64,000 bases of DNA, from IMG/VR virus record IMGVR_UViG_3300039355_000071. The stretch is one strand, 5' to 3'. The DNA is from a virus. Below are positions 2,062 through 46,833 of this stretch, piece after piece. Both the position numbers and the translations under genes were made by a program. The notes under the pieces were generated by a model. It saw nothing but the letters and a program-made list of their open reading frames with translations. It searched no databases and was not told the origin of the DNA. Numbering within the stretch: position 1 is the first letter of the stretch; every line of letters begins with the position of its first letter.

Positions 2062-2178
2062 ATGTATAATCCAAAAGGGTACTATGTACCTAGTGGATAC
2101 ATGGGTTATGTATCAGAAGAAAAGAGTTATATACTCTTTTCAACTGAGCAAGATTATCTTGAATACATAACCGACTAA
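2062..2178 (+). CDS. small protein (38 aa), paralog of the 5532 gene
   Basis: MYNPKGYYVPSGYMGYVSEEKSYILFSTEQDYLEYITD. It shares the pattern GY..P.GY.G.V....Y.LF.SE..Y.EY with the 5532..5645 product. Confidence 0.4.
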   Translation: MYNPKGYYVPSGYMGYVSEEKSYILFSTEQDYLEYITD

Positions 2179-2193
2179 CTCACAAATGAATTG

Positions 2194-2775: not shown

Positions 2776-2808
2776 GAGCAGATCAGCACTACCAGTCTGC
2801 TCTTTTAT
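2776..2808 (+). terminator. Rho-independent terminator
   Basis: GAGCAGA, 13-nt loop, TCTGCTC, then TTTTAT. Followed by the motif TAGTGTGCAT. Confidence 0.6.
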
Positions 2809-19381: not shown

Positions 19382-19684
19382 AATATGTGTAAACGACATG
19401 ACAATACAAACAGATCAAGTGAATTTATCTGTTTAAGATGTCTTAGTAAAAATCAAGTTGGTGATAAAATGCGTAGACCGAATATGAGAGAAAAAGATCA
19501 TGTAAAAAACTTGTGTTGTCTATGTACAAAGTTGCAAATGAGAACTAAAAATCTTGAAGTTAGGTGGTGCGATGATTTTGACGAGCGTATGGAATACGCA
19601 AAGAAAATTAAACCCAGATATTATGATGAGAATAATGAACTGCTACCTGAATGGCAAACGGAGAATATGTATGTAGGAAAGTGA
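19382..19684 (+). CDS. Cys-rich zinc-finger protein (100 aa)
   Basis: RBS GAGGTGA. CLRCLSKN..CCLCTKL. Confidence 0.45.
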   Translation, partial: NMCKRHDNTNRSSEFICLRCLSKNQVGDKMRRPNMREKDHVKNLCCLCTKLQMRTKNLEVRWCDDFDERMEYAKKIKPRYYDENNELLPEWQTENMYVGK

Positions 19685-19689
19685 GGTTG

Positions 19690-20715
19690 ATGAACATGTG
19701 TTACAAAATAGAAGTACAAAACAAAAATGCTGAAAAGCTTAATATGAAGTTGGATGAGTTAAACGCACCACAGTTTTTAAGAGGTTACTTGAATGAATTG
19801 GAAAGTAAAAGTGGAGCGTTAAATTATTTAGTGGCAATTAAAGATTTTTTACAGTGGTTGATTGAAAGTAATATCATTAATAAAAAATCAATTTCTGAAA
19901 TAGAAGTTTCTGATTTTAGTGACTTACGACCACAAAATATTAGTTCATACCTTAGATATAAAGAAACAAATGGAATGTCACCAACCACAACGGAAACAAG
20001 AAAGAATATTATAAAAAGTTTTATAAAAAATGTATATTCATATAGAGAATGTTTATTGAGAGAACTCTATAACAGTATGGAAGATTTTAGTAAACAAATA
20101 AAATATAAAGGAATATCTTCTAAAAACAACTTAACACAAAAACTTCCAACAGAAAATCAGCTTAATGATATGGAAGAAAAAATAATGTGGAAAAAGGATG
20201 AATGTGTAAGGAATAGAAATATTGCTATTTTTCGTGTCTTAAGAGGAACTGGAATAAGAGAGTCTGAACTTGCTGGCTTGGATTTATCAGATTTGCATTT
20301 AGATGAAAATAATGAATATATTGATCTTAATGATATGTCACATATTATGGTTTTACCAAAAGGATATCAAAGAGAAACTGAAAAAAGACCTGTGTATCTT
20401 ACTGGATCTGCTCTGAAAGCATTAAGAGAATGGTTAGAGTATAGAAATACATTGGATAATATTGTAGACAAAGAAGCTGTGTTCGTAAATAAAAATGGTA
20501 CACGTACAACAGAGAGAAATATCAAACAGATATTTGAGAATTATGGAAATGGTATTACTCCACATATGATGCGACATTATTATGCTAGTATAATGAACAG
20601 AAATGGAAATCTTGCATTTGTTCAGCAGCAGTTGGGGCATAGTAGTGTAAATACAACAGTTAATAATTATGCCAATGGAGCTGTGGGAATGAAAACAGTT
20701 TTGGAGAATATGTAA
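19690..20715 (+). CDS. int: tyrosine site-specific recombinase/integrase (XerC/D-like)
   Basis: TGIRESELAGLDLSDL (Arg box), HMMRHYYAS and LGHSSVNTTVNNYAN (His-x-x-Arg and the catalytic Tyr region). RBS GTGAGG. Confidence 0.8.
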   Translation: MNMCYKIEVQNKNAEKLNMKLDELNAPQFLRGYLNELESKSGALNYLVAIKDFLQWLIESNIINKKSISEIEVSDFSDLRPQNISSYLRYKETNGMSPTTTETRKNIIKSFIKNVYSYRECLLRELYNSMEDFSKQIKYKGISSKNNLTQKLPTENQLNDMEEKIMWKKDECVRNRNIAIFRVLRGTGIRESELAGLDLSDLHLDENNEYIDLNDMSHIMVLPKGYQRETEKRPVYLTGSALKALREWLEYRNTLDNIVDKEAVFVNKNGTRTTERNIKQIFENYGNGITPHMMRHYYASIMNRNGNLAFVQQQLGHSSVNTTVNNYANGAVGMKTVLENM

Positions 20716-20933: not shown

Positions 20934-21160
20934 TTATTTTGGATAAGTGATTGCATTCTGATATTTGACGACTTGAAAAGTTCATTTGGAGAACATTCTA
21001 ACGCAATGCAAATCTTTTCAAGAGTATCAAATCGTATATTAGTTGTCTCGCAATTATATATTTTATTTATTGCGTTAGGTGCTATACCAGTTTCTTTTGC
21101 AAGCCAATATTGTGTTTTATTTTTATTTATAAGAATGGATTTTATGTCTAGCTGTAACAT
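20930..21160 (-). CDS. XRE-family HTH repressor (cI-like position)
   Basis: TQYWLAKETGIAPNAINKIYNCETTNIRFDTLEKICIALECSPNELF. Divergent from the toxin-gene promoter. Confidence 0.7.
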   Translation of the reverse strand: MLQLDIKSILINKNKTQYWLAKETGIAPNAINKIYNCETTNIRFDTLEKICIALECSPNELFKSSNIRMQSLIQNN

Positions 21161-21226
21161 ATTTTACCTCCTATACATTTTTGTAAATAGATTATCATAA
21201 AATATTATATTTTACAATAATATATC

Positions 21227-21255
21227 TTGACATATATCATTTGCAGGTATATAAT
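21227..21255 (+). promoter_or_regulatory. consensus sigma-A promoter for the MazF-like gene, with flanking inverted repeats
   Basis: TTGACA, 17 nt, TATAAT (a perfect match). TTGTAAA..TTTACAA inverted repeat just upstream. Confidence 0.65.
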
Positions 21256-21306
21256 GCATAGTATCAAAGGTAATCCATTACATAAATATAAGAGAGGAGG
21301 ATACAT

Positions 21307-21687
21307 ATGGATTTACAAAGATACGATATAATTAAGGCAAACGTAAAATATGAAGGTGGATCAGTCCAAACAAAAGAACGTCCATATGTTATCGTGTCGA
21401 ATCCGATTGGAACAAAACACGCTACGATAATCACAGTGATGCCTTTGACTTCAAAAATAAAGAAATTGAATATGCCAGTTCACGGTTGTATTAATGCAGA
21501 TGATAAAAATGGATTGACAGAATATTCAATGCTACTTGGTGAACAGTTAATTACTATTTCAAAAGAAGAAGTAATTAACAAATTAGGAACTGTTACAGAT
21601 GAAAAAGAGAAAAAGTTAATTGATAAGGTTTGTTTTAATTCTTTATTTTTTGGAACAGAATATAGACTAGAGGAGGTAACTGCGTAA
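21307..21687 (+). CDS. mazF: MazF/PemK-family endoribonuclease toxin homolog
   Basis: KERPYVIVSNPIGTKHATIITVMPLTSKIKKLNMPVHGCI..EYSMLLGEQLITISKEEV aligns along its length with NdoA/MazF (RPVLVIQND..PT.IVAAITSQ..K..LPTHV). Confidence 0.7.
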   Translation: MDLQRYDIIKANVKYEGGSVQTKERPYVIVSNPIGTKHATIITVMPLTSKIKKLNMPVHGCINADDKNGLTEYSMLLGEQLITISKEEVINKLGTVTDEKEKKLIDKVCFNSLFFGTEYRLEEVTA

Positions 21688-21941
21688 TGTATGTAAGTAA
21701 AGAAATGGCAAAAAAGATTATTGATGAAGCACCTGGAAAAATTTGGATAGATTCATTTAATGGACTTACATTTATTCATACAAAACCAAGACAAATCAGT
21801 ATTGATGAAGGAAAGAATATGATAAATAATGCATCTACAGTTGATTATCAAGACAATGAAATCTTCGGAAGATTATGTTTGGAGGGAATTCAAGAACTAA
21901 TGATACACAATATAAATTTTCCGCTTAAACTTAGAGAATAA
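21687..21941 (+). CDS. hypothetical protein (84 aa), translationally coupled to the MazF-like gene
   Basis: TAATG overlap. Confidence 0.4.
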   Translation: MYVSKEMAKKIIDEAPGKIWIDSFNGLTFIHTKPRQISIDEGKNMINNASTVDYQDNEIFGRLCLEGIQELMIHNINFPLKLRE

Positions 21942-28694: not shown

Positions 28695-30752
28695 ATGGAT
28701 GGATTTATGATGTTTAAGAAGGCTTTACAGAAGCACTTCGATGAAATGCAGAAAGAGGCAACACATTTATTTGAGGTAAATGTAGATAAGGATGAATTAT
28801 GGAATACATATCTTGATAGCTTCCCTGCTGGTACAAATGAGATTTTCAGAGAGCGTAGAGAACATGATTGTAGTTGTTGTAGACAGTTTATTAAGAATAT
28901 TGGTTCTGCTGTCACTATCAAGGATAACCAAATTCATACGATTTGGGAACTGAATCTTGGTGATACAACATATCAACCAGTATGTGATGCACTTGATGCT
29001 TTTGTAAAAGCTCATACAGTTACAGATATTTATACAACTAAGTTCCCTAAGATTGGTACAGATTTTAACTTTGAGGAAATCAATGGAAAGTCTCATCAGT
29101 GGGATCATTTCTTCTTAGAGCTTCCAAATAAGTTTGTAAATAGAAGTAGTCGTTCTAATGAGGAAGTTAAAGGACAGTTCAGAGATACAAGAAATGTATT
29201 TAAGCGTTCTCTCGATGAAATTACTATGGATGCACTTGATACAATTCTTGAACTTATCAACTCAAATACACTTTACAAGGGCGAAGAGTGGAAAGGCGTA
29301 CTCACAGAGTTCAAGAAGTATAAGAAGGAATACGATAAGCTGACTTCTGATACTGAAAAGGATTTATATGCTTGGGAGAAGTCGGTAACAGCAGGTATGG
29401 CTATCGGAAGAATTAGAAATCATTCTATCGGAACACTTCTTATTAATGTAAGTGAGGATATGGATCTTGACACAGCAGTTAAGAAGTATGAGCAGATTGT
29501 CGCTCCAAGCAATTATAAGCGTCCAAAGGCTATTTTTACAAAGAAGATGCTTGAGGATGCAAAGAAGACTATTACAGAACTTGGATATATGGATTCATTA
29601 CAGAGAAGATTTGCTAATCTGAATGATATTACTGTAAATAATGTACTGTTCTCAAATAAGAGTGCTGCAAGAAGAATGGTTGGTGCAGATGATATTTTTG
29701 GACAGATGGAAAAGGATGTTGCTGTAAGTCCTAAGAAGTTTTCTAAGGTTGAAGAGATTTCAGCACAGAATTTCATTGATAAGGTACTTCCAACTGCAAA
29801 GGAGATTGAAGCTTTTGTAGAGAATAAACATGAGAAGAACTTTGTTTCTATGATTGCACCTGTTAATCCAGACGCTAAGACAATGTTCAAGTGGAATAAT
29901 GGATTATCTTGGGCTTATTCAGGAAACATTACTGACTCTGATATGAAGCAAAATGTAAAAGCTGCTGGCGGTAATGTCGATGGTGTACTCAGATTTTCTA
30001 TTCAGTGGAATGAAGATGGTCATGATAATTACGACCTTGATGCACATTGTATTGAGCCAGATAAGAATGAAATTTTCTTTAGTAATTGTAGAAAGCCAAA
30101 TGTTTCAAGAATGGGTGGTCAGTTAGATGTTGATATTATTCATCCAAATGGAAAGGTTGCAGTAGAGAATATTACTTGGGAAGACCTGTCAAGAATGAAA
30201 CCAGGTGTTTATAAATTCTTTGTACATCAGTATTCGGGAAGCGTAAGGCATGGATTTAGAGCTGAGATTGAATTTAATGGAGAAATTTACAAGTTTGATT
30301 ACGATAAGTCAATGAGAACTGATGAAAAGGTTCAGGTTGCAGAAGTAACACTCGATGAGAATGGAAACTTCTCAATTAAGGAGAAATTAGCAGGAAATTC
30401 ATCTATTTCAAGCCGTGAGATTTGGGGTGTAAATACAAATCAGTTCGTTCCTGTATCAGTAATCAGTTATAGTCCAAACTATTTTGACGAGCAGGATGGA
30501 ATTGGTCATAGACATTTATTCTTCTTCCTGAAAGATTGTGTAAATAGCGAAGAGCCTAATGGATTCTATCTTGAGTTCCTTGATAATGATTTAATGAAGC
30601 ATAAGAGAGTGTTCGAGGCTTTAGGTGCTAAGTGTCATGTAGAAGATACTGATGATCAGCTTTCAGGAATTGGTTTTTCGATGACAAAGAGAGCAGATTT
30701 AGTTGTTAAGGTTAAGGGTGCAACAGAGCGTGTAATGAAGATTAAGTTTTAA
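28695..30752 (+). CDS. large hypothetical protein (685 aa), family not recognised
   Basis: RBS GAAGAGGTAC. No P-loop and no ligase KxDG motif found by eye. Confidence 0.6.
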   Translation: MDGFMMFKKALQKHFDEMQKEATHLFEVNVDKDELWNTYLDSFPAGTNEIFRERREHDCSCCRQFIKNIGSAVTIKDNQIHTIWELNLGDTTYQPVCDALDAFVKAHTVTDIYTTKFPKIGTDFNFEEINGKSHQWDHFFLELPNKFVNRSSRSNEEVKGQFRDTRNVFKRSLDEITMDALDTILELINSNTLYKGEEWKGVLTEFKKYKKEYDKLTSDTEKDLYAWEKSVTAGMAIGRIRNHSIGTLLINVSEDMDLDTAVKKYEQIVAPSNYKRPKAIFTKKMLEDAKKTITELGYMDSLQRRFANLNDITVNNVLFSNKSAARRMVGADDIFGQMEKDVAVSPKKFSKVEEISAQNFIDKVLPTAKEIEAFVENKHEKNFVSMIAPVNPDAKTMFKWNNGLSWAYSGNITDSDMKQNVKAAGGNVDGVLRFSIQWNEDGHDNYDLDAHCIEPDKNEIFFSNCRKPNVSRMGGQLDVDIIHPNGKVAVENITWEDLSRMKPGVYKFFVHQYSGSVRHGFRAEIEFNGEIYKFDYDKSMRTDEKVQVAEVTLDENGNFSIKEKLAGNSSISSREIWGVNTNQFVPVSVISYSPNYFDEQDGIGHRHLFFFLKDCVNSEEPNGFYLEFLDNDLMKHKRVFEALGAKCHVEDTDDQLSGIGFSMTKRADLVVKVKGATERVMKIKF

Positions 30753-30774
30753 ATTAGAAAAGGAGATTATTATT

Positions 30775-31164
30775 ATGACAAACAATGAATTATTTATTAA
30801 TGCAACGAGAAATAATTATCAGTTTCCATTCAGAGGAATGATTAACGTAATTGATTTGTGGGATTTATCTCTCACAAATCTGGACTCAGTATTTAAAACA
30901 CTCAATGCAGAAGTAAAGAAGTCTGAGGAAGAAAGTCTTTTGAATACTAAGTCAAAGGAAGATGAGGAGATTTCTAATAAGATTGAAATTGTCAAGTATA
31001 TTGTTAGTGTGAAGCTGGATGAGAAGAAGAAGAGAGAAGACGCTAAGAAAAATGCTGAGATAAGACAGAGATTGCTTGAAATCAAGGCTAAGAGACAGGA
31101 TGCAGCACTTGAAAACATGTCTGACGAGGAGCTGGATAAGGCACTTGCCGAGTTGGGAGAATAA
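30775..31164 (+). CDS. Glu/Lys-rich coiled-coil protein (129 aa)
   Basis: RBS AAAAGGAGAT. Confidence 0.5.
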   Translation: MTNNELFINATRNNYQFPFRGMINVIDLWDLSLTNLDSVFKTLNAEVKKSEEESLLNTKSKEDEEISNKIEIVKYIVSVKLDEKKKREDAKKNAEIRQRLLEIKAKRQDAALENMSDEELDKALAELGE

Positions 31165-31171
31165 GATAATT

Positions 31172-31196
31172 AGGTCGGTTGATAAATGACCGACCT
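31172..31196 (+). terminator. terminator-like hairpin
   Basis: AGGTCGGTtgataaatgACCGACCT. Confidence 0.45.
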
Positions 31197-31223
31197 TAAT
31201 ATAAAAGAAAAGGAGACAAAAAG

Positions 31224-32804
31224 ATGAGTAGTATTTTAAGTAACTTAGGAATGGTAATTCCGATTGTAGCAATTGTATTAGTTGTAGTTGGTTTGTTAGT
31301 GGCAGGTTATGTAAAGGCTTCACCTGATAGAGCATACATAATTTCTGGACTTAGAAAAGAACCAAAGGTGTTAATTGGTAAAGCTGGAATCAAAATTCCG
31401 TTTTTAGAAAAGAAAGATGAACTGAATTTGCAGTTGATTCCAATTGATGTAAAGACAAGTAGTGCAGTTCCAACAGCAGATTATATTAACATCAATGTAG
31501 ATGCTGCGGTCAACGTAAAGGTAAGTTCAGACAATACAAGATTACAGCTTGCAGCTCAGAACTTTTTAAATAAACCAGTTGATTATATTGGAAGCGTAGC
31601 AAGAGAAGTTCTTGAAGGAAATATGAGAGAAATTGTTGGTAAGATGAATTTAGAGGAAATGGTTTCAGATAGACAGAAGTTTGCCGAACTTGTAAAAGAG
31701 AATGCAGAACCTGATCTTGCAGCTATGGGACTTGATATTGTAAGTTTCAATGTACAGAACTTTGTTGATGAAAATGGTGTTATTGAGAACCTTGGTGTAG
31801 ATAATATTGTTAAGATTCAGAAAAATGCAGCTATTTCAAGAGCTGAAAGTGAAAAAGAGATTGCAAAAGCAAGAGCTATCGCAAAGAAGGAAGCAAATGA
31901 TGCGGAAGTAAGTTCTGAATTAGAGATTGCAAATGCACAGGCTGAAGCTCAGAAGAAGAAAGCAATCGTTCAGGCTAATGCAAATCGAGAATCACAGGAA
32001 GCTCAGATTGAAGCAGATACTCTTATTGCCCAGAAAGAGAATGAACTTGCGATTAAAAAGGCAGAATTACAGAAAGATGCTGATACAAAGAAAGCAAGTG
32101 CAGATGCAGCATATAATATTCAGCAGGAAACAGAGAGAAAGACAGTTGAGATTGCAACGGCTGATGCAAATCTTGCTCGTCAGGAAAAGGCTATTGCTTT
32201 AAAAGAGAAAGAAGTAGAACTTACAGAGAGAACTCTTGAAGCAACAGTAAAGAAACAGGCAGAAGCTGATAAATATGCAAAACAGCAGGAAGCAGATGCC
32301 AAGTTATACGAAACTCAGAGACAGTCGGAAGCAAAACTGTTTGAGAGACAGAAGAATGCCGAAGCAGAAAAGTTTGAACAGGAAAAGAAAGCAGAAGCTG
32401 AAAAAGCAACAGCAGATGCCAACAGATACACAATGGAACAGGAAGCAGAAGGTATTCGTAGTAAAGGACAGGCAGAAGCGGATGCCATTAAAGCAAAAGC
32501 GTTAGCAGAAGCAGAAGGTATCGAAAAGAAAGCAGAAGCCATGAAACAGATGGGCGAAGCCGCTGTATTAGAGATGTACTTCAAAGCAATGCCTGAGATT
32601 GCTAAGAATATTGCAGAGCCACTTGCGAAGGTTGATAAGATTACAATGTACGGTGATGGCAATTCATCTAAGCTGATGAAAGATATTATGAACACTCTCA
32701 ATCAGGTAACAGATGGAATGAAAGAGTCTACTGGTATTGATCTTAGTTCTGTACTTGCTGGTTTTGCAGGTGCAAAGATTGCAGATAATACACAGAATAA
32801 GTAA
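31224..32804 (+). CDS. flotillin/SPFH (band-7) family membrane protein
   Basis: N-terminal transmembrane helix GMVIPIVAIVLVVVGLLVAG. SPFH-like core. Long Ala/Glu/Lys coiled coil with EAEAEK repeats. This is the YqiK/FloT architecture. Confidence 0.65.
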   Translation: MSSILSNLGMVIPIVAIVLVVVGLLVAGYVKASPDRAYIISGLRKEPKVLIGKAGIKIPFLEKKDELNLQLIPIDVKTSSAVPTADYININVDAAVNVKVSSDNTRLQLAAQNFLNKPVDYIGSVAREVLEGNMREIVGKMNLEEMVSDRQKFAELVKENAEPDLAAMGLDIVSFNVQNFVDENGVIENLGVDNIVKIQKNAAISRAESEKEIAKARAIAKKEANDAEVSSELEIANAQAEAQKKKAIVQANANRESQEAQIEADTLIAQKENELAIKKAELQKDADTKKASADAAYNIQQETERKTVEIATADANLARQEKAIALKEKEVELTERTLEATVKKQAEADKYAKQQEADAKLYETQRQSEAKLFERQKNAEAEKFEQEKKAEAEKATADANRYTMEQEAEGIRSKGQAEADAIKAKALAEAEGIEKKAEAMKQMGEAAVLEMYFKAMPEIAKNIAEPLAKVDKITMYGDGNSSKLMKDIMNTLNQVTDGMKESTGIDLSSVLAGFAGAKIADNTQNK

Positions 32805-32959
32805 TACAAGTAAAATTCAAGAGTTGGTAGGTGTCATAGCCTACTGACTCTATCAATATACCATATATAGCAACTATAAAACACAATATATACTATATAT
32901 GGTATATAAATTATATTAGAAGGAAACGCACATTTCTTATGGAATTTCGGAGGTGAAAT

Positions 32960-33554: not shown

Positions 33555-34583
33555 ATGACAATTGAACAGATTAAGGACAAATTAAAATCAAAAGAGTATG
33601 ACTTCCTGAGAACAGATAAGAATTTGGGTAACAATATCATTATCTTAACTCTTGGTGGAAGTCATGCATATGGAATGGATAAAGAAGGATCTGATTTAGA
33701 TGTGAGAGGTATTGCACTCAACAGCAAATCAGATATTTTACTTGGAACAGACTTTGAACAGGTCGTAGATGTTGATACGGATACAACTATGTATTCGTTT
33801 AATAAAATGATACAGCTTTTAGCATCAAGTAATCCTAATACAATTGAACAACTTGGCTGTTTGCCTGAGCATTATTTACATTTATCTAAAATTGGTAAAG
33901 AATTATTGGATAATAGAAAAATGTTTCTTTCGCAGATTTGTGTTCATACCTTTGGAGGATATGCTGGTTCTCAGCTCAGACGTATGGAAAACAAGGCTGC
34001 AAGATTGGTTGGTCAGGCAGAAAATGAAGCCTACATTTTAAAAAGCATCAATAATGCAAGATATGAATTTAAAAACAGATATTACCCTCATGAAAATAGT
34101 GATGTGAAACTATATATTGATAAGGCTGTTCAAGAAGGATATGATAGTGAGATTTTTATGGATGTAAACTTGCAACATTATCCGTTAAGAGATTGGGCTG
34201 GCATGTGGAACGAAATGAAGTCCATTGTTAGTAGTTATAGCAAATTTGGTAAAAGAAATGAAAAGGCTGTAGCCCATGATAAATTAGGAAAACATATGGC
34301 TCATTTGATTCGATTATATATGATGTGTATTGATATTCTGGAAAAGGAAGAGATTATCACTTATAGATCAGATGAACACGATTTACTTATGAGTATTAGA
34401 AATGGAGAATATTTAGATGAAAATAGACAACCTATTTCTGAGTTCTATGATTTATTGAATGAATATGAAAAACGTTTTGAATACGCAAAAGAAAATACAT
34501 CTTTGCCTGATAAACCTGATTATAAGAAAATCAATGAATTTAAGATGTATGTAAATGAGAGAATTGTGAAAGGAGATATCTGA
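33555..34583 (+). CDS. Pol-beta-superfamily nucleotidyltransferase
   Basis: LTLGGSHAYGMDKEGSDLDVRGI is the GS-x(9-13)-DxD signature. First gene of the overlapping four-gene operon. Confidence 0.55.
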   Translation: MTIEQIKDKLKSKEYDFLRTDKNLGNNIIILTLGGSHAYGMDKEGSDLDVRGIALNSKSDILLGTDFEQVVDVDTDTTMYSFNKMIQLLASSNPNTIEQLGCLPEHYLHLSKIGKELLDNRKMFLSQICVHTFGGYAGSQLRRMENKAARLVGQAENEAYILKSINNARYEFKNRYYPHENSDVKLYIDKAVQEGYDSEIFMDVNLQHYPLRDWAGMWNEMKSIVSSYSKFGKRNEKAVAHDKLGKHMAHLIRLYMMCIDILEKEEIITYRSDEHDLLMSIRNGEYLDENRQPISEFYDLLNEYEKRFEYAKENTSLPDKPDYKKINEFKMYVNERIVKGDI

Positions 34584-35545
34584 TGGAAATATCAAATAGA
34601 GCAAAAGAAAGATTCTGTAAGGATTGCAATATACCAATTAGATTATTCCAAGAGCCATATTTTTTAGATAGAATTAAGCTTTTTGATGAGTTTTATGGAA
34701 CTGTTGACAAGTGGATTAGATTTGTAAGCGAATTACAGGAGTATAATTGTGAGCAGGATTATTTTGAAGAATATAATCATGTAAAGGATGCAGCTATTAC
34801 AAGTATCAAAGAGTCAGAGGCATATCAGAGATTTAATGCGGAAGATATGAACAAATTCACTGTGATTCATAAAAATTTATCTAATAAAGATATATTTAAG
34901 TCAACTAATACTGGAAGAGTTTTTATCAGTATTGATATGAGAAAGGCTAATTTTTCATCTTTACACGAATATGATAAGAATATATTTCGTGGGACTGATA
35001 CATGGGAAGATTTTATTTCTCAATTCACGGATAACGAACATATTGCAAATAGTAAATATATTCGCCAGGTTATTCTTGGTAATTGTAATCCTAAAAGACA
35101 TATCACCTATGAAAAATACCTTATGGATCAGACATTATCGTTATTATATGACATCATTGGTGAAGAGAGAATTGTATTCTTTTCAAATGATGAGATCGTT
35201 TATGATATGACAACTGCAAGTAATTTGCACATGTTAAGTCTTGTGAGAAATTGTGTTGAAGAAAGATTAAATACAAAATCTAATATTCCATTCAGAGTAG
35301 AGTTATTTTCACTCCACAAGATCAATGGTACTGACGGATACTGTAAGAAAATCTATAAAGAAAATGGAGAATATAATATTGAATTTAAGTGTTTGGATAA
35401 TTATATGATGCCATTCGTACTTAGATATTTCTTAGGAGAAGAAATTACTGAAAGTGACAAGGTGTTCTACCATGAAGGGCTATTGGCAAAGTTTATTGAA
35501 GAACCGAAAATTGAGGTGAATTTGGATGAAAAGATTGAAAATTGA
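34583..35545 (+). CDS. hypothetical protein (320 aa), operon partner
   Basis: ATGG overlap with the upstream stop. Confidence 0.5.
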   Translation: MEISNRAKERFCKDCNIPIRLFQEPYFLDRIKLFDEFYGTVDKWIRFVSELQEYNCEQDYFEEYNHVKDAAITSIKESEAYQRFNAEDMNKFTVIHKNLSNKDIFKSTNTGRVFISIDMRKANFSSLHEYDKNIFRGTDTWEDFISQFTDNEHIANSKYIRQVILGNCNPKRHITYEKYLMDQTLSLLYDIIGEERIVFFSNDEIVYDMTTASNLHMLSLVRNCVEERLNTKSNIPFRVELFSLHKINGTDGYCKKIYKENGEYNIEFKCLDNYMMPFVLRYFLGEEITESDKVFYHEGLLAKFIEEPKIEVNLDEKIEN

Positions 35546-36935
35546 AATTCCATCTGGTGCAAATGAAATTATCCATAGTCTACAAAATAATGGATATGAG
35601 GCATTTTTATGTGGCGGTGCAGTAAGAGATAGTATTCTTGGCAGAACAATTCACGATTATGACATTACAACTTCTGCCACACCAGATGAAATGATGGAAG
35701 TATTCAAGGATAAAAGAATTATTGAAACTGGATTACAACATGGAACTATTACCATTGTAATTGACGGTGAAGGATATGAATGTACCACTTACAGAATTGA
35801 CGGTAATTACTCAGATAGTCGTAGACCTGATAGCGTAACATTTACACGAAATCTTAAAGAAGATTTAAAGCGTAGAGATTTTACAATCAATGCGATGGCA
35901 TACAATGATGAAGTTGGACTTGTAGATCCATTTAATGGCATGGAAGATATTGAGCATTATAAAATCAGATGTGTTGGTAGAGCAGAGGATAGATTTTCAG
36001 AAGATGCTTTAAGGATTTTACGTGCTATTCGGTTTGCTTCACAATTGGGATTTGTAGTTGACTCTGATGTAAGTTTGAACATTCATAAAATGTATAAGAA
36101 TTTAGAGAATATATCTATTGAGAGAATCAACAGTGAGTTCTGTAAAATTGCATTATCAAGCGAGTTTTATATACAGATAGGATTATTCCGTGAAGTATTC
36201 TCGTTATTTATTCCTGAAATAAAAGATATGTTTGATTTTCCGCAGAATAATCCATATCACATCTATGATGTATGGAATCATACAGTACATGCAGTACATG
36301 CTTATGAATGTGATTGTGAACCCGACTTGAATCCAAGGGATTTGATTACATCATTGGCTGTATTTTTTCATGATATTGGAAAGCCACATTGTTATCAAGA
36401 TGGCGAGGATGGCATTAGACATTTCAAAGGTCATGGAAGAGTCAGTGCTGATATGACTGATACAATTATGAAAAGACTTCGTTTTGATAATGATACAAGA
36501 GAAAAGGTAATGCAGCTTGTTTATTATCATGATGCAACTTTTGAAGTGGGTGAAAAGTATATCAAGAGATGGCTCAATAAGATTGGAGAAGAACAATTTA
36601 GAAGATTACTGAATGTTCGTAGAGCAGATATTAAAGCGCAGGCTTATACAGATCAAGAAAGTAGGCTTCAGAAAATTGACAATATCGAATATATCTTAGA
36701 GGAAGTTTTACAGAAAGACGAATGTTTCTCACTGAAAGATTTGGCTGTTGATGGCAATGATTTGATTGAGATTGGATATAAGCCAGGAAAAGAAATAGGG
36801 AATACACTGAATTGTCTTTTGCAGTTAGTAATTGAAGGTGTATATCTAAACGAGAAAAGTGAGTTACTTAAATATGTTGAAACAACAAAAGAATGGATGA
36901 AGTTAGGAGAGAATTATAATGGTAAGATTATTTAG
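35526..36935 (+). CDS. cca: CCA-adding enzyme (tRNA nucleotidyltransferase with C-terminal HD domain)
   Basis: LCGGAVRDSILGRTIHDYDITT (GGAVRD plus DxD) and FFHDIGKPH (HD). Confidence 0.8.
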   Translation: MKRLKIEIPSGANEIIHSLQNNGYEAFLCGGAVRDSILGRTIHDYDITTSATPDEMMEVFKDKRIIETGLQHGTITIVIDGEGYECTTYRIDGNYSDSRRPDSVTFTRNLKEDLKRRDFTINAMAYNDEVGLVDPFNGMEDIEHYKIRCVGRAEDRFSEDALRILRAIRFASQLGFVVDSDVSLNIHKMYKNLENISIERINSEFCKIALSSEFYIQIGLFREVFSLFIPEIKDMFDFPQNNPYHIYDVWNHTVHAVHAYECDCEPDLNPRDLITSLAVFFHDIGKPHCYQDGEDGIRHFKGHGRVSADMTDTIMKRLRFDNDTREKVMQLVYYHDATFEVGEKYIKRWLNKIGEEQFRRLLNVRRADIKAQAYTDQESRLQKIDNIEYILEEVLQKDECFSLKDLAVDGNDLIEIGYKPGKEIGNTLNCLLQLVIEGVYLNEKSELLKYVETTKEWMKLGENYNGKII

Positions 36936-37842
36936 CCACAGTGATTTAGACGGAATCGGTTGTGGTATTTTAGCACAACTTGCATTTGGTAAAGATAATG
37001 TAGAAATTTCATATTGTGATTATGACAATATTGATTCAACTGTAAAGAAATATTTGGAAATAGAACAGGACGACACAATTCCAATTTATATTACCGATAT
37101 TCGTGTCAATGAAGAAACTGCTGAGTTGCTGAATAAAAGAGGCAATGTTCAGTTATTAGATCATCATCCAACAGCTCTTGGATTAAATAAGTATGATTGG
37201 TGTGATGTAGTTATCGAAGATTCCAAAGGAATTAAAACATCGGGAACTATGTTGTTTTATCATTACTTAGGTATGAATGGTTGTCTGAGTGAAGAGTTAG
37301 AGAATAATAAAGCGTTAGAGAGATTTGCTGAACTTGTGAGAGATTATGACACTTGGAGATGGTCAGAACTCGGTGATGAAGGTGTTATTTGTAAGCAGGT
37401 AAATGATTTATTATATCTTTACGGTAGAGATGATTTTATTCATTGGTGCATTTCAGAAATCCATGATGAGGTATTTCCAAGATTATATGCTAAAGATGAG
37501 GTTATTCTGAAGATTAAGCAGGATGAAATTGATAGATATATCGAAGAGAAGAATGAAACTATGTTTACCAGTCCTATGTGTGGTAAGGTTTGTGGTTTTG
37601 TATTTGCAGATAGGTTTGTTAGCGAATTAGGTAATAGACTTTGTAAAATGCATCCTGAAATTGATTTTGTGGCTATGATTGATATTGATGGTTGTACGGT
37701 ATCTTATAGAACCGTTAAAGAAGATATTGATCTTGGTAAAGATGTAGCAAGTTTATTTGGTGGCGGTGGTCATCCAAAAGCTGTTGGTTTAGAATTTAGT
37801 CAGAATATTAAGTCGAAAGTTATTGAGGAAATTTTTGAATAG
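36919..37842 (+). CDS. DHH/DHHA1 phosphoesterase (NrnA-like nanoRNase / pAp phosphatase family)
   Basis: SHSDLDGIGCG (motif I), LLDHHP (motif III), GGGGHPKAVG (DHHA1). Confidence 0.7.
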   Translation: MVRLFSHSDLDGIGCGILAQLAFGKDNVEISYCDYDNIDSTVKKYLEIEQDDTIPIYITDIRVNEETAELLNKRGNVQLLDHHPTALGLNKYDWCDVVIEDSKGIKTSGTMLFYHYLGMNGCLSEELENNKALERFAELVRDYDTWRWSELGDEGVICKQVNDLLYLYGRDDFIHWCISEIHDEVFPRLYAKDEVILKIKQDEIDRYIEEKNETMFTSPMCGKVCGFVFADRFVSELGNRLCKMHPEIDFVAMIDIDGCTVSYRTVKEDIDLGKDVASLFGGGGHPKAVGLEFSQNIKSKVIEEIFE

Positions 37843-41404: not shown

Positions 41405-41602
41405 ATGGTAGACATTCAGTGTAAAGACGGAAAATATATTATTGAGGCAAGGATTCATAGTGAAGTTGATACAAATGATATTGCAAAAGTGCAGGAAAGA
41501 TTTACTTCTGATTGTGCTTATGAGTTTGCAGAAGCTATGAGAGAAGCAGTAAACGTTAGCCATTTGGTAATGAAAGAACAAAGAAAAGAGGTAACAAAAT
41601 GA
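41405..41602 (+). CDS. small hypothetical protein (65 aa)
   Basis: RBS AAGGAGAATAAG. Confidence 0.45.
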   Translation: MVDIQCKDGKYIIEARIHSEVDTNDIAKVQERFTSDCAYEFAEAMREAVNVSHLVMKEQRKEVTK

Positions 41603-42111
41603 GCAAAACATTAATCGTAGTAGATATGCAGAATGATTTTATTGATGGCTCACTCGGTACAAAGGAAGCACAGACAATTGTATCGAATGTAGCAAAGAAA
41701 ATTAAGGAGTACAAGGATGCTGGTAAACAGGTAATCTTTACAAGAGACACACACCCTGAGAATTATTTGGAAACATATGAGGGTAAGCATCTTCCTGTTA
41801 CTCACTGTGTAAAGAATACTGTTGGTTGGCAGATTTCAGATAGGTTAGATTTTGATATTGAGAACGATATTCTGATTGATAAGCCTACTTTTGGTTGGTT
41901 AAACTGGAAGGATTTTGGATTTGAAAGTGTTGAGGTTTGCGGATTATGCACCGACATCTGTGTGGTTTCAAATGCACTTATTATTAGAGCAAATTATCCT
42001 GAGATTGATATTACAGTAGATGCAAGCTGTTGTGCAGGTGTCACACCTGATACTCACAATGCTGCATTAGCAACTATGAAGATGTGTCAGATCGAAGTGA
42101 TTGGAGAGTAG
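41599..42111 (+). CDS. isochorismatase-family cysteine hydrolase (nicotinamidase PncA-like)
   Basis: LIVVDMQNDF and CGLCTDICV (catalytic Asp and Cys context). 170 aa. Confidence 0.6.
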   Translation: MSKTLIVVDMQNDFIDGSLGTKEAQTIVSNVAKKIKEYKDAGKQVIFTRDTHPENYLETYEGKHLPVTHCVKNTVGWQISDRLDFDIENDILIDKPTFGWLNWKDFGFESVEVCGLCTDICVVSNALIIRANYPEIDITVDASCCAGVTPDTHNAALATMKMCQIEVIGE

Positions 42112-42114
42112 AAT

Positions 42115-42951
42115 ATGATTAAAATTAATGGCGAAATTGTAACAATCAACAAGTTTCCAGATGGAACACCAAGAGTAAATATTGATATAAACAACATTGA
42201 GGAAGACTCTTATGATGGCTCTCCTTGTATTTGGATTGAATGGATTTATGAGAGTAACGATGAGATATTTTATCTGATGTTAGTAAAGAAACATCTTGAA
42301 AGATTTTTTACTAATGTGGATTATTATTTGTCTCTTCCATATATTCCTAATGCACGAATGGATAGAGTAAAAAATGATGATGAAGTATTCACATTGAAGT
42401 ATTTTTGCGATTTTATCAATTGGTTAGGATTTTCATCAGTTTATGTTTTAGATGCTCATAGCGATGTTTCTACTGCATTACTCAATAATTGTGTAAAAGA
42501 AAATCCAAAAGAGTATGTTGATAAAGCTATTTCAAAGATTGGTATGAGAAATCTTGTACTTTATTTCCCAGATGCAGGTGCAGCTAAGAGATATTCAGAT
42601 TTATTTCCTGAGTTACCATATTGTTATGGTGAAAAGAAGAGAGATTGGAAGACTGGTAAAATCCTTGGATTAGACATTAGAACAAATGGTATTGATTTGA
42701 AAGATAAAGCTGTGTTAATGATTGATGATATTATCGCATATGGCGGTTCACTTTATTATAGTGCAGAAGAATTGAAGAAACATGGTGTAACTGAGATTTA
42801 TGCATATGCCACTCATACAGAGAATTCAATTCTTAATAAAGAAAAAGGAACATTAATCAAATCTTTGGAGAATAATACTGTGAACAGATTATTTACCACA
42901 AACAGTTTATTTAATGGTAGTCATGAAAAAATTACGGTTATGGAGGTTTAA
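42115..42951 (+). CDS. ribose-phosphate pyrophosphokinase (Prs)-like enzyme; candidate ADPR-pyrophosphate synthetase (Adps) of a NARP1 module
   Basis: KFPDGT (N-terminus), VLDAHSDV, FPDAGAAKRY, VLMIDDIIAYGGSL (PRPP-binding-like loop). Confidence 0.65.
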   Translation: MIKINGEIVTINKFPDGTPRVNIDINNIEEDSYDGSPCIWIEWIYESNDEIFYLMLVKKHLERFFTNVDYYLSLPYIPNARMDRVKNDDEVFTLKYFCDFINWLGFSSVYVLDAHSDVSTALLNNCVKENPKEYVDKAISKIGMRNLVLYFPDAGAAKRYSDLFPELPYCYGEKKRDWKTGKILGLDIRTNGIDLKDKAVLMIDDIIAYGGSLYYSAEELKKHGVTEIYAYATHTENSILNKEKGTLIKSLENNTVNRLFTTNSLFNGSHEKITVMEV

Positions 42952-42955
42952 AATT

Positions 42956-44416
42956 ATGGATAACACAATGGCTTTATTATTATCAGATACTTATAAACAG
43001 TGTCATGATCGCATGTACCCAAATGGTTTGACTAAATTGGTGTCGTATTGGGTGCCTCGAAAATCAATGTTAGAGAATCAGAATGAAATGGTTTTCTTTG
43101 GATTGCAGGCATTTATCAAAGAATATTTAATGGGAGATTTTCAGAAAAATTTCTTCGATTTATCGGAAGATGAGATGTTAACTCTTTATACAGATTCGAT
43201 GGATGTACAGATTGGTAGAGACAACTATGATTTAGATAAAATTGTAGAGCTTCACAGATTAGGATATTTACCACTTGAGATTAGAGCATTGCCAGAAGGT
43301 ACACTTGTTCCTATGGGTGTTCCTTGTATTGAGATTACAAATACGGATGATAAATTTGCTTGGCTTGTTCAGTGGATTGAATGTATTCTTCAGGTAGAAT
43401 TATGGAAACCTTGTTGTCATGCAACTATCGGTCATATGTATCGTGAAATTGCAGATTATTGGTATAACAAGACAACAGACGGATTGCCTGGAAATATGGC
43501 TTGTGCGGATTTTGGCATGAGAGGAATGTCTTGTATGGATGAAGCTACAAGATGTTCAGCATCATGGTTGCTTTCATTTAATAAGACATCTACAATTCCA
43601 GCAATTAATTATATTGATAGATATTACAATGCCGATTGTAAGAATAATGGTATTGGAATCGGTGCTGTCTCAACTGAGCATTCTGTAATGGGTGCTAATT
43701 TCTCAATTGATGGAGATGAGATTACGTTTGTTAAAAGACTTTTAACAGAGTTATATCCAAATACATCATTTAGTATGGTTTCAGATACTTATGATTATTG
43801 GAATATGGTAAATAATATTCTTCCACAGTGTAAAGAAGAGATTATGAATCATAATGGAAAGCTCTTGGTTCGTCCTGATAGTGGTGATATTGTAGAGATT
43901 TCAGTTAAAACAGTTGAAAGGTTGTGGGAGATTTTTGGTGGTTCTGTAAATGGTAAAGGTTATAAGGTATTAAATCCGCATATCGGTATTATTTATGGTG
44001 ATGGCTGCACACTTTCTAATGTAGAAACTATTTGGAAAGAATTAGAAAAGCGTGGTTTCGCAGCTAATAATATTGCTTATGGTGTAGGAGCTTTTTGCTT
44101 CACTGCAATCGTTGAAAACGGCAAGATGATTGTTGTTACAAGAGATACTTTTGGTATTGCAATGAAAGCTACATATGGAGTAATTGATGGCAAGAAGTTA
44201 ATGATTTTCAAAGATCCTAAGACAGATACAAGTCACTTAAAGAAATCTCATAAAGGATGTTGTAGAGTATACGATGATAACGGTGAATTAAAGTGTCAAG
44301 ATCAGTTACTTGAAATGAGTGATAACAGTTTACTTACTACCGTATTTAAAGATGGAGAATTAGTAAGAGAAGATACATTTGCGGATATTAGAAACAGAAT
44401 GTACGGAGGTAAGTAA
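42956..44416 (+). CDS. NAMPT-family type II phosphoribosyltransferase; candidate nicotinamide-ADPR transferase (Namat)
   Basis: N-terminal LLLSDTYKQCH (the D-[ST]-Y-K motif of NAMPT/PncB). About 487 aa from the RBS-supported ATG 42956. Confidence 0.65.
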   Translation: MDNTMALLLSDTYKQCHDRMYPNGLTKLVSYWVPRKSMLENQNEMVFFGLQAFIKEYLMGDFQKNFFDLSEDEMLTLYTDSMDVQIGRDNYDLDKIVELHRLGYLPLEIRALPEGTLVPMGVPCIEITNTDDKFAWLVQWIECILQVELWKPCCHATIGHMYREIADYWYNKTTDGLPGNMACADFGMRGMSCMDEATRCSASWLLSFNKTSTIPAINYIDRYYNADCKNNGIGIGAVSTEHSVMGANFSIDGDEITFVKRLLTELYPNTSFSMVSDTYDYWNMVNNILPQCKEEIMNHNGKLLVRPDSGDIVEISVKTVERLWEIFGGSVNGKGYKVLNPHIGIIYGDGCTLSNVETIWKELEKRGFAANNIAYGVGAFCFTAIVENGKMIVVTRDTFGIAMKATYGVIDGKKLMIFKDPKTDTSHLKKSHKGCCRVYDDNGELKCQDQLLEMSDNSLLTTVFKDGELVREDTFADIRNRMYGGK

Positions 44417-44877
44417 TGATTAAAATTATTGATGGAGACTTACTCACTTCGAACACTGATATTATTGCACACCAGGTTAATTGCAAAGGTGCTTTTAATT
44501 CTGGTGTTGCAAAAGCGATCCGTGATTATGATGTGCAAGTATATAAAGATTATCATAGTTTTTGTTCGATTAATACACCTGAACAATTATTGGGTTCTGT
44601 TAGATATTTTCAGTCTAATATTGACGCAAGAATATATGCAAATTTATTTGCACAAAAATCATATGGCTATGACGGAAAACAGTATACAGATATTGACGCT
44701 TTAAGAAAATGTTTTGAAAATTTGAGATCATATGCAGTTTTGGAAAATATGAGTATTGCAATGCCATATAAAATTGGATGTGTTCGTGGCGGTGCAAATT
44801 GGGAAGAAGTGTATCAAATGATAAATGATATATTTGAAAATTGTAATATTGAATTATGGAGGTTAGATAAAGGATGA
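44416..44877 (+). CDS. macro-domain (ADP-ribose-binding/processing) protein
   Basis: IIDGDLLTSNTDIIAHQVNCKGAFNSGVAKAI. Confidence 0.65.
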   Translation: MIKIIDGDLLTSNTDIIAHQVNCKGAFNSGVAKAIRDYDVQVYKDYHSFCSINTPEQLLGSVRYFQSNIDARIYANLFAQKSYGYDGKQYTDIDALRKCFENLRSYAVLENMSIAMPYKIGCVRGGANWEEVYQMINDIFENCNIELWRLDKG

Positions 44878-45632
44878 GTAATTTTGATGCTAAGAAAGTA
44901 AAGAATGAGATCGTAGAGTGGATTAGAGATTGGTTTGAACAGAATGGTAAAGATTGTATGGCAGTAGTTGGAATTTCTGGCGGTAAGGATTCAAGCGTTG
45001 TTGCTGGCTTATGTTGTGAAGCTCTTGGAAAAGATAGAGTTTTTGGTGTAATGATGCCACAGGGAGAACAGCCAGATATTGATTATTCTCGAATGCTTAT
45101 AGACCATCTTGGAATCGACAGTTGTGTTGTAAATATAGGCAATACAGTTCGCACTTTAAAGCATGAGATTAAACCACAGTTGGGAGATCATTGGTCAAAG
45201 CAGACTTCTACAAATCTCCCTGCTCGTATTCGTATGACTACGCTTTATGCAGTATCGCAGACAGTAAATGGTCGTGTCGCTAATACGTGTAATCTTTCAG
45301 AAACATTACTATCTTGGGAAACCAGATGGGGTGATGCAGTTGGAGATTTTGCACCAATTAGCGACTTAACAGTAAAAGAAGTGAAAGCTATTGGATATGA
45401 ACTTGGATTGCCAAATGAATTAATCGAAAAAATTCCGTCTGATGGACTGTGTGGAAGTACAGATGAAGATGCATTGGGATTTAAATACTCTGTTATGGAT
45501 AGATATATTAGAACAGGCGAGATTGACGACAAAGATATTAAAAAGAAAATTGATAATCGAGTAGAAAAATATCGGTTTAAGAGAATGCCTATTCCTTATT
45601 ATAAAACAGGTATGGAAAGATATGTAGACTAA
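44874..45632 (+). CDS. nadE: NH3-dependent NAD+ synthetase
   Basis: VVGISGGKDSSVVAGL (PP-loop SGGxDS). 252 aa. Confidence 0.7.
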   Translation: MSNFDAKKVKNEIVEWIRDWFEQNGKDCMAVVGISGGKDSSVVAGLCCEALGKDRVFGVMMPQGEQPDIDYSRMLIDHLGIDSCVVNIGNTVRTLKHEIKPQLGDHWSKQTSTNLPARIRMTTLYAVSQTVNGRVANTCNLSETLLSWETRWGDAVGDFAPISDLTVKEVKAIGYELGLPNELIEKIPSDGLCGSTDEDALGFKYSVMDRYIRTGEIDDKDIKKKIDNRVEKYRFKRMPIPYYKTGMERYVD

Positions 45633-45633: not shown

Positions 45634-46833
45634 ATGGCAGAAGACTTAACTAATTTACAATTTGGAAAATTAACAGTCATCAAACGTGGAGACAACGATA
45701 AAAGCGGACATGTGAGATGGTGGTGTAAATGTGACTGTGGCAACCCTAAATTGATTTTAGTTGCCGCAGGACATTTAAAATCAGGACATACTCAATCATG
45801 TGGATGTATAAGAAGAGATAATATTAAACCACAAAAGAATTTAGAAGGAAAAAGATTTGGGAAATTAATTGTAAAAGAATTTCTTGGTATAAAAAATCAT
45901 AGATCATTATGGAGTTGTGATTGTGATTGTGGTAAGAAAATTAACGCTTTATCATCGTCTTTAACTTCTGGAAAACTTAAGTCATGTGGATGTTTATCTT
46001 CTGTAGCTGAGTTCGAATTAAGCCAGTTCTTGACAGATGAACAAATTATATTTGATACGCAATATAAGTTTGATGATTGTAAATATAAAAGAAGATTGCC
46101 ATTCGATTTTGCAATTTTTCATCCACAAAATAAGAAACTCTTATTTTTAATTGAACTACATGGAGAACAGCATTATTTTCCGTTTACATTTAATAGTGAG
46201 TCTGATATGCAAAAGAAGGAAAATTTTTTGCATAGAAAACATTTGGATAAATTAAAAGAAGATTATTGTAGTGAAAATAATATTCCATTGTTAATTATTA
46301 GATATACAAATTTTCAAACAAAAGAAAAAATTGTAAAAGGGTTTTATGAAAAGCTCTTGCAAAAGAATATTACATTTGATGATTATATATTTTCATCAAA
46401 ACAAATAAAGGATGATTTACAAGTAAAGCATAAACGTGTCTATAAAAGAAAAGTAGTCCAAATAGATATACCCAACAAGAATATTATAAGAGAATATAAT
46501 AGTATGGAAGAGGCATATAAGATAACTGGAATATCATCTGGACAGATTTCGGATTGTTGTAAGGGTAATTGTAAAACAGCAGGTGGATATGCCTGGGCAT
46601 ATAATAACGGAAACGTTAATATTGAAGAAGTAATTAAACGTGCAACAATTCCAAATAGAACAAATGCAGTTGTGATTTTCCAAAAAGATAAAAATGGAAA
46701 TATTATAAAAGAGTGGCAAAGTATAACAGAAGCAGCACATTCTTTGGGAGTAAGTCATCAAGGTATTCAAGCGTGTTGTTCAGGAAAGCAGAAAACTTGT
46801 AAAGGATTTGTTTGGAATTATAAGAAAGATTGA
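45634..46833 (+). mobile_element. homing-endonuclease-like gene: zinc-ribbon repeats, DUF559/Vsr-like PD-(D/E)xK nuclease core, C-terminal NUMOD-like DNA-binding repeats
   Basis: FGKLxV..W.C.CDCG..SCGC repeated twice. LPFDFAIFHPQNKKLLFLIELHGEQHY. Duplicated EY.S..EA...TGIS...I..CC.GK.KT..G..W.Y modules. Confidence 0.45.

Follow-up and report, generated by a model that had tools for sequence, protein, structure and literature searches.

A near-unaltered flotillin of bacterial descent in the accessory arm of an SPbeta-like temperate phage

Why would a phage carry a complete flotillin? The question is raised by a gene at positions 31224..32804 of IMG/VR virus record IMGVR_UViG_3300039355_000071, a 64,000-nt stretch of DNA called the window below. 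What bacterial flotillins do for the cell is a matter of continuing debate. The open reading frame (ORF) is an intact flotillin-type SPFH protein with an anchor, an SPFH core, a coiled coil and a Flot domain. That it is a flotillin and that it came from a cellular host is, for the two statements taken jointly, very nearly certain. The features of the gene are given here in window coordinates, with residues in amino acids (aa).

31224..32804, plus strand: flotillin gene, complete coding sequence including the stop codon; 526 aa, ATG start (Pfam, flotillin-1 alignment, fold match)
31210..31215, plus strand: Shine-Dalgarno sequence AAGGAG, 8 nt 5' of the ATG (read from the sequence)
31245..31313, plus strand: predicted N-terminal hydrophobic membrane anchor, aa 8-30 (hydropathy, modelled helix 2-26)
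31326..31856, plus strand: SPFH/Band_7 core, aa 35-211 (PF01145, Foldseek)
31797..32627, plus strand: helical (coiled-coil) region rich in Glu and Ala (EA-rich), aa 192-468, about 270 residues (composition, model, flotillin-1 alignment)
32469..32669, plus strand: C-terminal Flot domain, aa 416-482 (PF15975)
31927..32202 and 32275..32505, plus strand, and 32221..32433 and 32315..32701, minus strand: overlapping ORFs with low-complexity translations

In Pfam, the Band_7/SPFH profile PF01145 matches aa 35-211 (E=5.2e-22, 79.2 bits, cut-off 23.6) and the Flot profile PF15975 matches aa 416-482 (E=3.7e-09, 37.2 bits, gathering score 27). The sole hydrophobic segment of the protein, aa 8-30, reaches a Kyte-Doolittle 19-residue mean of 3.13, and Glu, Ala, Lys and Gln together account for 58-70% of the composition across residues 201-450. 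When PDB sequences were searched with phmmer, human flotillin-1 (9bq2_B) was matched at E=2.5e-50 in three collinear stretches spanning aa 32-510, the helical wall of flotillin-1 aligning with the EA-rich region of the phage protein. An AlphaFold monomer model, built from a 32-sequence alignment, consists of a helix at residues 2-26, an alpha/beta core at 72-182 (predicted local distance difference test score, pLDDT, 66-85), long helices at 192-253, 260-404 and 415-468, and a small C-terminal helical domain. The top Foldseek matches of this model are the chains of the flotillin-1/2 cage (9l3g, 9bq2; E=3e-16, ~445 columns), followed by stomatin, HflK/C and prohibitin; the SPFH fold itself matches flotillin-2 (1win), stomatin (4fvj) and Pyrococcus horikoshii stomatin with target TM-scores of 0.72-0.85. 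A preliminary description of this DNA had proposed the full flotillin architecture (transmembrane anchor, SPFH core, EA-rich coiled coil) from the sequence, and profile, hydropathy, flotillin-1 alignment and fold search agree with it, including at the two points where it could have failed, the Band_7/SPFH profile and the hydrophobic N-terminal segment. The overlapping ORFs, which it had called spurious, are present and lack coding support.

Where the gene came from can be read from its relatives. A large protein database returned more than 8000 matches, and beyond the phage's own cluster (99% identical) the best of them are Lachnospiraceae proteins labelled flotillin or YqiK, at 82-91% identity; a scan of GTDB genomes found flotillins at 75-89% in Bariatricus, Catenibacillus, Dorea, Agathobacter, Schaedlerella and Acetatifactor. 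The 91% homologue (P0003) lies on a contig of 34% GC beside genes for an SNF transporter, DAP dehydrogenase, DAHP synthase and ribosomal proteins L13 and S9, and an 84% homologue lies with YabP, YqfD, PhoH and YbeY. Both contexts are chromosomal. In a neighbour-joining tree of 135 flotillins, built without bootstrap values, the clade of the window flotillin sits within a low-GC Lachnospiraceae subclade. Because the phage clade nests in cellular flotillins and its closest relatives are chromosomal, transfer is taken to have run from host to phage. The identity of 91% at the amino-acid level had prompted the idea of a recent capture, but this is ruled out: the phage gene and its closest bacterial copy share only 80% of their nucleotides, synonymous divergence (dS) is saturated (2.4), and the DNA alignment ends inside the ORF on both sides, with no flanking homology. 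On the same grounds, and because homology is confined to the body of the ORF, the capture is judged old. The GC content at third codon positions (GC3) of the flotillin is 26%, in keeping with the phage. These comparisons indicate the descent of the phage flotillin, by old capture, from the chromosomal flotillins of low-GC Lachnospiraceae-type bacteria. A further candidate, that the phage integrates into a host flotillin, as phage Perkons does into floA, and carries a replacement copy, was rejected, the gene being full length, 11.5 kb from the integrase and only 80% identical in nucleotides to cellular copies. A split flotillin on one bacterial contig proved to be merely an adjacent frameshift.

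The captured gene has been kept under strict selection. Compared with the flotillins of two related contigs (L013 and L094), the window protein is 99% identical and its DNA 94-96%, and the ratio of nonsynonymous to synonymous divergence (dN/dS) is 0.011 and 0.023 at dS 0.21-0.36. Pairs of bacterial flotillins with unsaturated dS give 0.012-0.06, so that the phage gene is constrained as tightly as the cellular copies. Substitutions between phage and cellular flotillins are limited to the N-terminal anchor and the last ~15 residues, both of which also vary among bacteria; the anchor is the most variable part among orthologues, and the SPFH core is nearly invariant between phage and bacteria. Since the substitutions are confined to anchor and tail and dN/dS is low, the phage flotillin is probably unmodified and functional. 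It is also optional: in four relatives (L155-L158), whose DUF8224 gene (see below) is 87-89% identical, no flotillin follows the 129-aa gene that precedes it in the window. The flotillin is an optional accessory gene of host origin, situated at a module boundary. The elements that define this boundary are the following.

31172..31196, plus strand: upstream hairpin with a 9-bp GC-rich stem, directly past the stop codon of the 129-aa gene (free energy -13.7 kcal/mol, z=-4.3)
32820..32907, plus strand: two downstream hairpins, one with a 13-bp stem at 32820-32851 and one with a 15-bp AT-rich stem at 32856-32907 (free energy -36.1 kcal/mol, z=-6.05)
30500..32880, plus strand: mosaic block of ~2.4 kb comprising the 3' end of the DUF8224 gene, the 129-aa gene and the flotillin, 100% nucleotide-identical in related phage contigs

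When genomes with and without the flotillin are aligned, homology stops at window position ~31172-31185, that is, at the hairpin after the 129-aa gene, and each lineage carries its own hairpin at the end of the DUF8224/129-aa block. The upstream hairpin marks the end of this conserved block and the start of a variable region. The downstream hairpins begin 16 nt past the flotillin stop codon and were also detected as an inverted repeat. They contain no U-run and are therefore not a canonical intrinsic terminator. An Rfam search of the window found two tRNAs and nothing else. The flanks of the mosaic block are 69-95% identical in a sliding identity profile against contigs L007-L012. These contigs were chosen by exact identity of the flotillin protein, and the block therefore shows mosaic exchange, not necessarily a sweep.

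The two genes upstream of the flotillin were located correctly by the preliminary description, which had regarded the larger one as unassignable and the smaller as a coiled-coil protein.

28695..30752, plus strand: 685-aa DUF8224 (PF26675)/phrog_1735 protein, a phage backbone protein (phrog_1735 E=8.5e-266)
30775..31164, plus strand: 129-aa charged helical protein, phrog_2018 (E=1.6e-36)

The first assessment does not hold: at E=8.5e-266 the 685-aa protein is assigned to DUF8224/phrog_1735, and it has no specific tie to the flotillin. By tblastn, DUF8224 proteins occur in 554 phage records, the carriers including Ackermannviridae, Bastillevirinae (63% identity), phiCbK-like phages, MaMV-DC and SP-15. 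A protein of ~125-140 aa follows DUF8224 in most of the records inspected, among phages of Bacillus, Caulobacter, Salmonella, Microcystis and Alteromonas; in none of the deposited phages inspected does a flotillin stand beside DUF8224. A functional trio of DUF8224, 129-aa protein and flotillin can thus be ruled out, since the pair occurs without flotillin in the 554 records and in the close relatives L155-L158, and flotillin occurs without the pair in L095, L140 and the lineages at ~50% identity. DUF8224 and the 129-aa protein form a backbone module, and the flotillin was inserted by chance at its downstream boundary. The AlphaFold model of the DUF8224 protein reaches a pLDDT of 41, from a shallow alignment of 86-97% identity. 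Against PDB sequences, a single-sequence search gave no match, and a diverse profile gave a best E of 0.013 over 50 residues. One segment of the gene (window 29926-30364, aa ~410-557) is hypervariable, with 69-80% nucleotide identity among close relatives and 91-100% elsewhere in the gene. The segment falls within the C-terminal half, which is rich in beta structure and carries the annotation 'galactose-binding domain-like' in Bacillus phage Emiliahah; this suggests a diversifying binding surface.

The replicon that carries the gene can be placed as well. Genes of the window are small, tightly packed and nearly all on the plus strand, at ~32% GC and with two tRNAs. They encode a tyrosine integrase, a sigma-like protein, a GmrSD_N/NsnA-like protein, DUF8224, the 129-aa protein and the flotillin, then an RlaP nucleotidyltransferase, a CCA-adding enzyme, a DHH phosphoesterase, a C5 methylase and a set for salvage of nicotinamide adenine dinucleotide (NAD), together with an HNH endonuclease, a radical-SAM protein and a PAPS-reductase-like protein. 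To the right of the window, matching contigs continue with Thg1, YopX, AAA_24, SSB, YorH, a primase-helicase and the alpha subunit of DNA polymerase III. To the left, ~13 kb from the window's left end, they carry a 922-aa single-subunit RNA polymerase of the YonO type (L148:13963-16731), preceded by an HNH/homing endonuclease. This polymerase is 44-45% identical to the yonO products of SPbeta, phi3T and Goe11 and matches phrog_8308 at 3.7e-246; relatives are also found in phages of Enterocloster, Thomasclavelia and Clostridium and in Perkons. The exact flotillin protein is deposited in NCBI nr as DAH04704.1, 'MAG TPA: flotillin [Bacteriophage sp.]', and is present on 61 contigs of up to 606 kb. 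Given the YonO homologue, YorH, YopX, the integrase and the NCBI phage label, the replicon is read as a large SPbeta-like temperate phage of gut metagenomes and the window as its accessory arm. One candidate structural-type gene was found, for a ClpP-family protein with a partial match to the head-maturation protease phrog_94 (3e-25). A 403-aa ORF to the left of the window, suspected of encoding a capsid protein, turned out to be an exonuclease. Megablast of an 8-kb region against 50,697 phage records gave no match. Among cultured phages the YonO homologue is best matched in Perkons, whose integration site is floA, a flotillin gene of its host; this is a coincidence of some interest.

Several segments of the accessory arm stand out beside the flotillin. 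Window 1-2800 differs from the rest in its GC content of 29%, its negative AT skew and its minus-strand ORFs; it marks a divergent-transcription boundary between the accessory arm and the module containing YonO. The integrase gene opens a second segment.

19651-20715: tyrosine integrase, 11.5 kb upstream of the flotillin

From here to 25590 the window has the appearance of a lysogeny or defence-type module with integrase, helix-turn-helix (HTH), PemK, tRNA, sigma-70-like and GmrSD_N genes. At ~21000-21700 lie an oppositely oriented HTH gene and a gene for a toxin of the PemK family (coordinates carried over from the genes called in L009, whose sequence is the same as that of the window in this part), and past PemK follow tRNA-Gln, tRNA-Met, a sigma-70-like protein of 218 aa and a 468-aa GmrSD_N protein that matches PADLOC NsnA (1e-11). 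Directly downstream of the flotillin, window 33555-37842 holds a cluster resembling tRNA or RNA repair genes: RlaP, an unassigned 320-aa protein, the CCA-adding enzyme (NF009814, 311.8 bits, above cut-off) and the DHH phosphoesterase; relatives add Thg1 and an RNA ligase to it. At 41599-45632 an isochorismatase/nicotinamidase-like protein (170 aa), a PRPP-synthetase-like PRTase (278 aa), NAMPT (500 aa), an unknown protein of 153 aa and NAD synthase (252 aa) are encoded, a cluster that resembles phage NAD-reconstitution sets countering NAD-depleting defences and that includes an extra NADAR protein in the relative L010. Right after the NAD synthase gene, a 399-aa HNH/homing-endonuclease-like ORF (45634-46833) suggests insertion of a mobile endonuclease in the accessory arm.

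The gene is one of few of its kind in phages. A tblastn search of the 50,697 deposited phage records matched the flotillin in 10, at 49% identity at best, and PHROGs returned a single marginal match (phrog_200, 3e-05), in line with the earlier remark that a flotillin is unusual in a phage accessory arm. In IMG/VR, 46 related flotillin loci were found. The window's own lineage is 96-99% identical by tblastn. Within it, the flotillin of L095, at 92% over the whole protein, has a different context with no DUF8224 nearby. A group at 87-88% (L096, L124, L130, P0006) includes a flotillin (P0006) of a 189-kb SPbeta-like phage with YorF, YorH and DnaB, in which an RNA ligase and a Tad2-like protein precede the flotillin and RlaP and the CCA enzyme follow it. 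Some 30 contigs of ~160 kb, labelled Caudoviricetes, carry flotillins 63-69% identical to the window's. Within this clade they are 94-99% identical to one another and ~70% at most to any bacterium, and 0.5-6 kb upstream, beyond variable inserts, DUF8224 (60%) and the 129-aa protein (42%) are encoded. Directly 3' of the flotillin these phages have a 182-aa ORF (L097:11464-12012) with an N-terminal hydrophobic helix and a coiled coil, which could encode a flotillin partner protein. It has no Pfam match and only a chance-level PADLOC match, and the suspicion of a PspA-like partner was dropped in the light of the Pfam result.

Several lineages at ~50% identity are flanked by AAA_33 kinases, metallophosphatases and PIN proteins. 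Two of these flotillins (L122:10001-11521 and L128:10001-11479) have 49% GC (GC3 50%) in loci of 38-39% GC, a mismatch that indicates a separate and comparatively recent capture from a host of higher GC. A 91%-identical flotillin (L142:7422-9041; P0002) belongs to a small integrative element that has Tn916-Xis, tyrosine integrase, Toprim/DUF3991, SSB and ParM-like genes and is inserted beside a gene for homoserine O-succinyltransferase; the coiled coil of this flotillin contains a 22-residue internal duplication. Vibrio phage KIT04 (Demerecviridae) has an annotated flotillin. As a separate observation, L010 encodes, ~4 kb upstream of an identical flotillin, a second, short SPFH protein (L010:5055-5924; 289 aa, Band_7, weak HflK/HflC-like matches), and the two genes are reminiscent of FloA plus FloT. 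Flotillins are rare in phages and have been acquired repeatedly, by at least five phage lineages and one integrative element. In publications that mention phage SPFH genes (PMC8540360 among them), what these genes do is described as unclear or is a subject of speculation. The identification as such is not new, the exact protein having been deposited as a phage flotillin (DAH04704.1). Per the searchable literature, the nesting within host flotillins, the strong constraint, the presence or absence at a defined boundary and the recurrence appear undescribed.

What the protein does for the phage is a more tentative matter. The role proposed here, to which somewhat less than an even chance is given, is that it adds flotillin capacity to the infected or lysogenic cell. 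Made in such a cell, the phage flotillin would be tethered to the cytoplasmic face of the host membrane by the hydrophobic segment at its N-terminus. Its oligomerisation into an SPFH ring or cage would run through the coiled coil and the C-terminal domain, on the pattern of the solved assemblies of flotillin, HflK/C, stomatin and prohibitin. As the SPFH core, coiled coil and Flot domain are nearly identical to those of cellular orthologues, the ancestral scaffold activity is probably kept, and co-assembly with the host flotillin is possible. Under envelope stress arising from phage development or from gut conditions, extra flotillin would sustain membrane fluidity, membrane organisation and envelope integrity, along with the membrane-bound machinery that relies on these, to the gain of the phage or the lysogen. 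FloA and FloT of B. subtilis are regulators of membrane fluidity; both are members of the sigma-W envelope-stress regulon, which phage infection, among other triggers, can induce (PMC8581546). Topping-up of host flotillin function is the most economical reading. The favoured statement as a whole, from identity and origin to supplementation of the scaffold, is about evenly balanced between true and false.

A number of points weigh against it. Mean pLDDT over the monomer model is 62, a moderate value for a subunit of elongated shape, and residues 28-69 and 405-445 fall below 50; insertion and topology of the anchor are predicted from homology and hydropathy, oligomerisation is predicted from homology, and co-assembly with the host's own flotillin is conjecture. 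A promoter and terminator scan around the gene found nothing above shuffled expectation, and no capsid, tail or terminase gene was found in the window or in the ~10-kb flanks that were reached. Furthermore, the surrounding NAD salvage, tRNA repair, methylase, GmrSD-like and PemK genes would fit a conflict-related role at least as well.

Such a role would be counter-defence or membrane repair, the flotillin stabilising or repairing the host membrane against membrane-disrupting abortive-infection effectors or premature lysis, so that the cell survives until progeny are complete. The arm is rich in likely counter-defence genes (NAD salvage; tRNA repair by RlaP, CCA-adding enzyme and DHH phosphoesterase; DNA methylases), a Tad2-like protein and an RNA ligase are encoded upstream of the flotillin in the 189-kb relative, other phage flotillins adjoin genes of RNA-repair type (AAA_33 kinases, Metallophos proteins, RNA ligase), and a connection of SPFH proteins with protection of the membrane and with recruitment of PspA has been described (PMC8581546). 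The argument is one of guilt by association, however, and accessory arms gather unrelated genes; SPFH proteins belong to no known anti-defence family, none has been reported as such in the searchable literature, and the phage flotillin shows no phage-specific changes relative to cellular copies. The explanation is considered unlikely. A wider version of it is distinctly doubtful: large Firmicute phages and integrative elements would have captured flotillin again and again as a conflict gene, in several unrelated lineages independently, and would keep it almost unchanged so that the product can co-assemble with host cages against pore-forming or depolarising abortive-infection effectors or premature lysis; if true, it would represent the first membrane-repair type of anti-defence function.

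An unlikely explanation too is lysogenic conversion or superinfection exclusion, whereby flotillin expressed from the prophage would block DNA injection by other phages or raise tolerance of bile or antimicrobial peptides. It would suit a phage of temperate type with an integrase 11.5 kb upstream and HTH, PemK and GmrSD_N/NsnA-like genes in between; the occurrence of the exact protein on contigs of up to 606 kb suggests an integrated state, the hairpins insulate the gene as in a moron, its presence varies among close relatives, and a related flotillin sits on an integrative element beside repressor-like HTH genes. However, PADLOC defence models match neither the flotillin nor DUF8224 nor the 129-aa protein, no promoter was identified, the gene shares its orientation and tight packing with neighbouring genes of lytic type, and no flotillin is known to exclude phages.

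Control of FtsH in the manner of HflK/C, which would tune the lysis-lysogeny decision or shield phage proteins from degradation, is very improbable. The SPFH fold is common to flotillin and HflK/C, Foldseek matches to FtsH-HflKC complexes reach E ~4e-07, the phage is temperate, and a link of this kind has been suggested before for SPFH genes of phages (PMC8540360). Yet the protein is of the flotillin type, not the HflK/C type, and the resemblance on which the FtsH-blocking idea draws is therefore one of superfamily: the HflK and HflC profiles TIGR01933 and TIGR01932 of NCBIfam do not match the window flotillin, whereas the 289-aa SPFH protein of L010 matches weakly, the gene stands alone with no hflK-hflC pair, and the charge distribution around the anchor suggests a mostly cytoplasmic protein. 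That the gene is a neutral passenger, or the contig bacterial or chimeric, is hardly credible: the closest homologues are chromosomal and no structural genes were seen within reach, but dN/dS is 0.011-0.023 over dS 0.21-0.36 in the phage lineage, the same gene order recurs on many independent contigs from different samples, the replicon has homologues of YonO, YorH and YopX, 554 phage records contain DUF8224, and several phage lineages gained flotillins independently.

In gut Firmicutes, the amount of flotillin or the way it assembles is evidently of consequence while a phage infects the cell or persists in it as a lysogen. A near-unaltered flotillin held under strict selection and missing in close relatives amounts to a natural gain-of-function experiment, and the main value of the locus is as a natural handle on flotillin function. 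Should the gene prove to act on the integrity of the membrane, the timing of lysis, superinfection or the evasion of defences, the auxiliary and counter-defence genes of phages would gain a membrane-scaffold class, and SPFH function a new handle; if it merely supplements the host's flotillin, it is one more host-derived accessory gene.

Among known systems, the other phage-encoded SPFH proteins are distant. The flotillin of Vibrio phage KIT04, from another phage family and host, is 25% identical over 145 residues, and the SPFH genes of Pseudomonas, Xanthomonas and Gibbsiella phages mostly encode short SPFH proteins, not full flotillins. HflK/HflC-FtsH (7WI3, 7VHQ), a system relevant to phage lambda lysogeny, shares the SPFH superfamily and a cage-forming architecture with the phage protein but belongs to a different subfamily; the latter is an unpaired single gene product with a much longer coiled coil. 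The eukaryotic flotillin-1/flotillin-2 cage (9BQ2, 9L3G) is ~30% identical end to end, although eukaryotic flotillins are without an N-terminal transmembrane-type helix and the phage protein is known here as a modelled monomer. For B. subtilis FloT (YuaG), the model NF058507 is the best NCBIfam match (E=5.8e-80), and the two flotillin-type SPFH proteins share an N-terminal anchor and an EA-rich coiled coil. The phage protein scores 269.6 bits against an equivalog cut-off of 700 bits, and is therefore FloT-like by architecture, not a FloT equivalog, and should not be named FloT. As for an NfeD partner, the ORFs flanking the flotillin (129 aa upstream, 83 aa downstream) have no Pfam match, and no NfeD appeared in the gene calls of six phage loci or in the bacterial loci. 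The closest counterparts are the chromosomal flotillins of Lachnospiraceae, from which the phage protein differs in being phage-encoded, in its ~80% nucleotide identity and lack of flanking homology, and in a diverged anchor and C-terminal tail, and with which it shares 82-91% amino-acid identity over its full length, the four-part architecture and the level of purifying selection.

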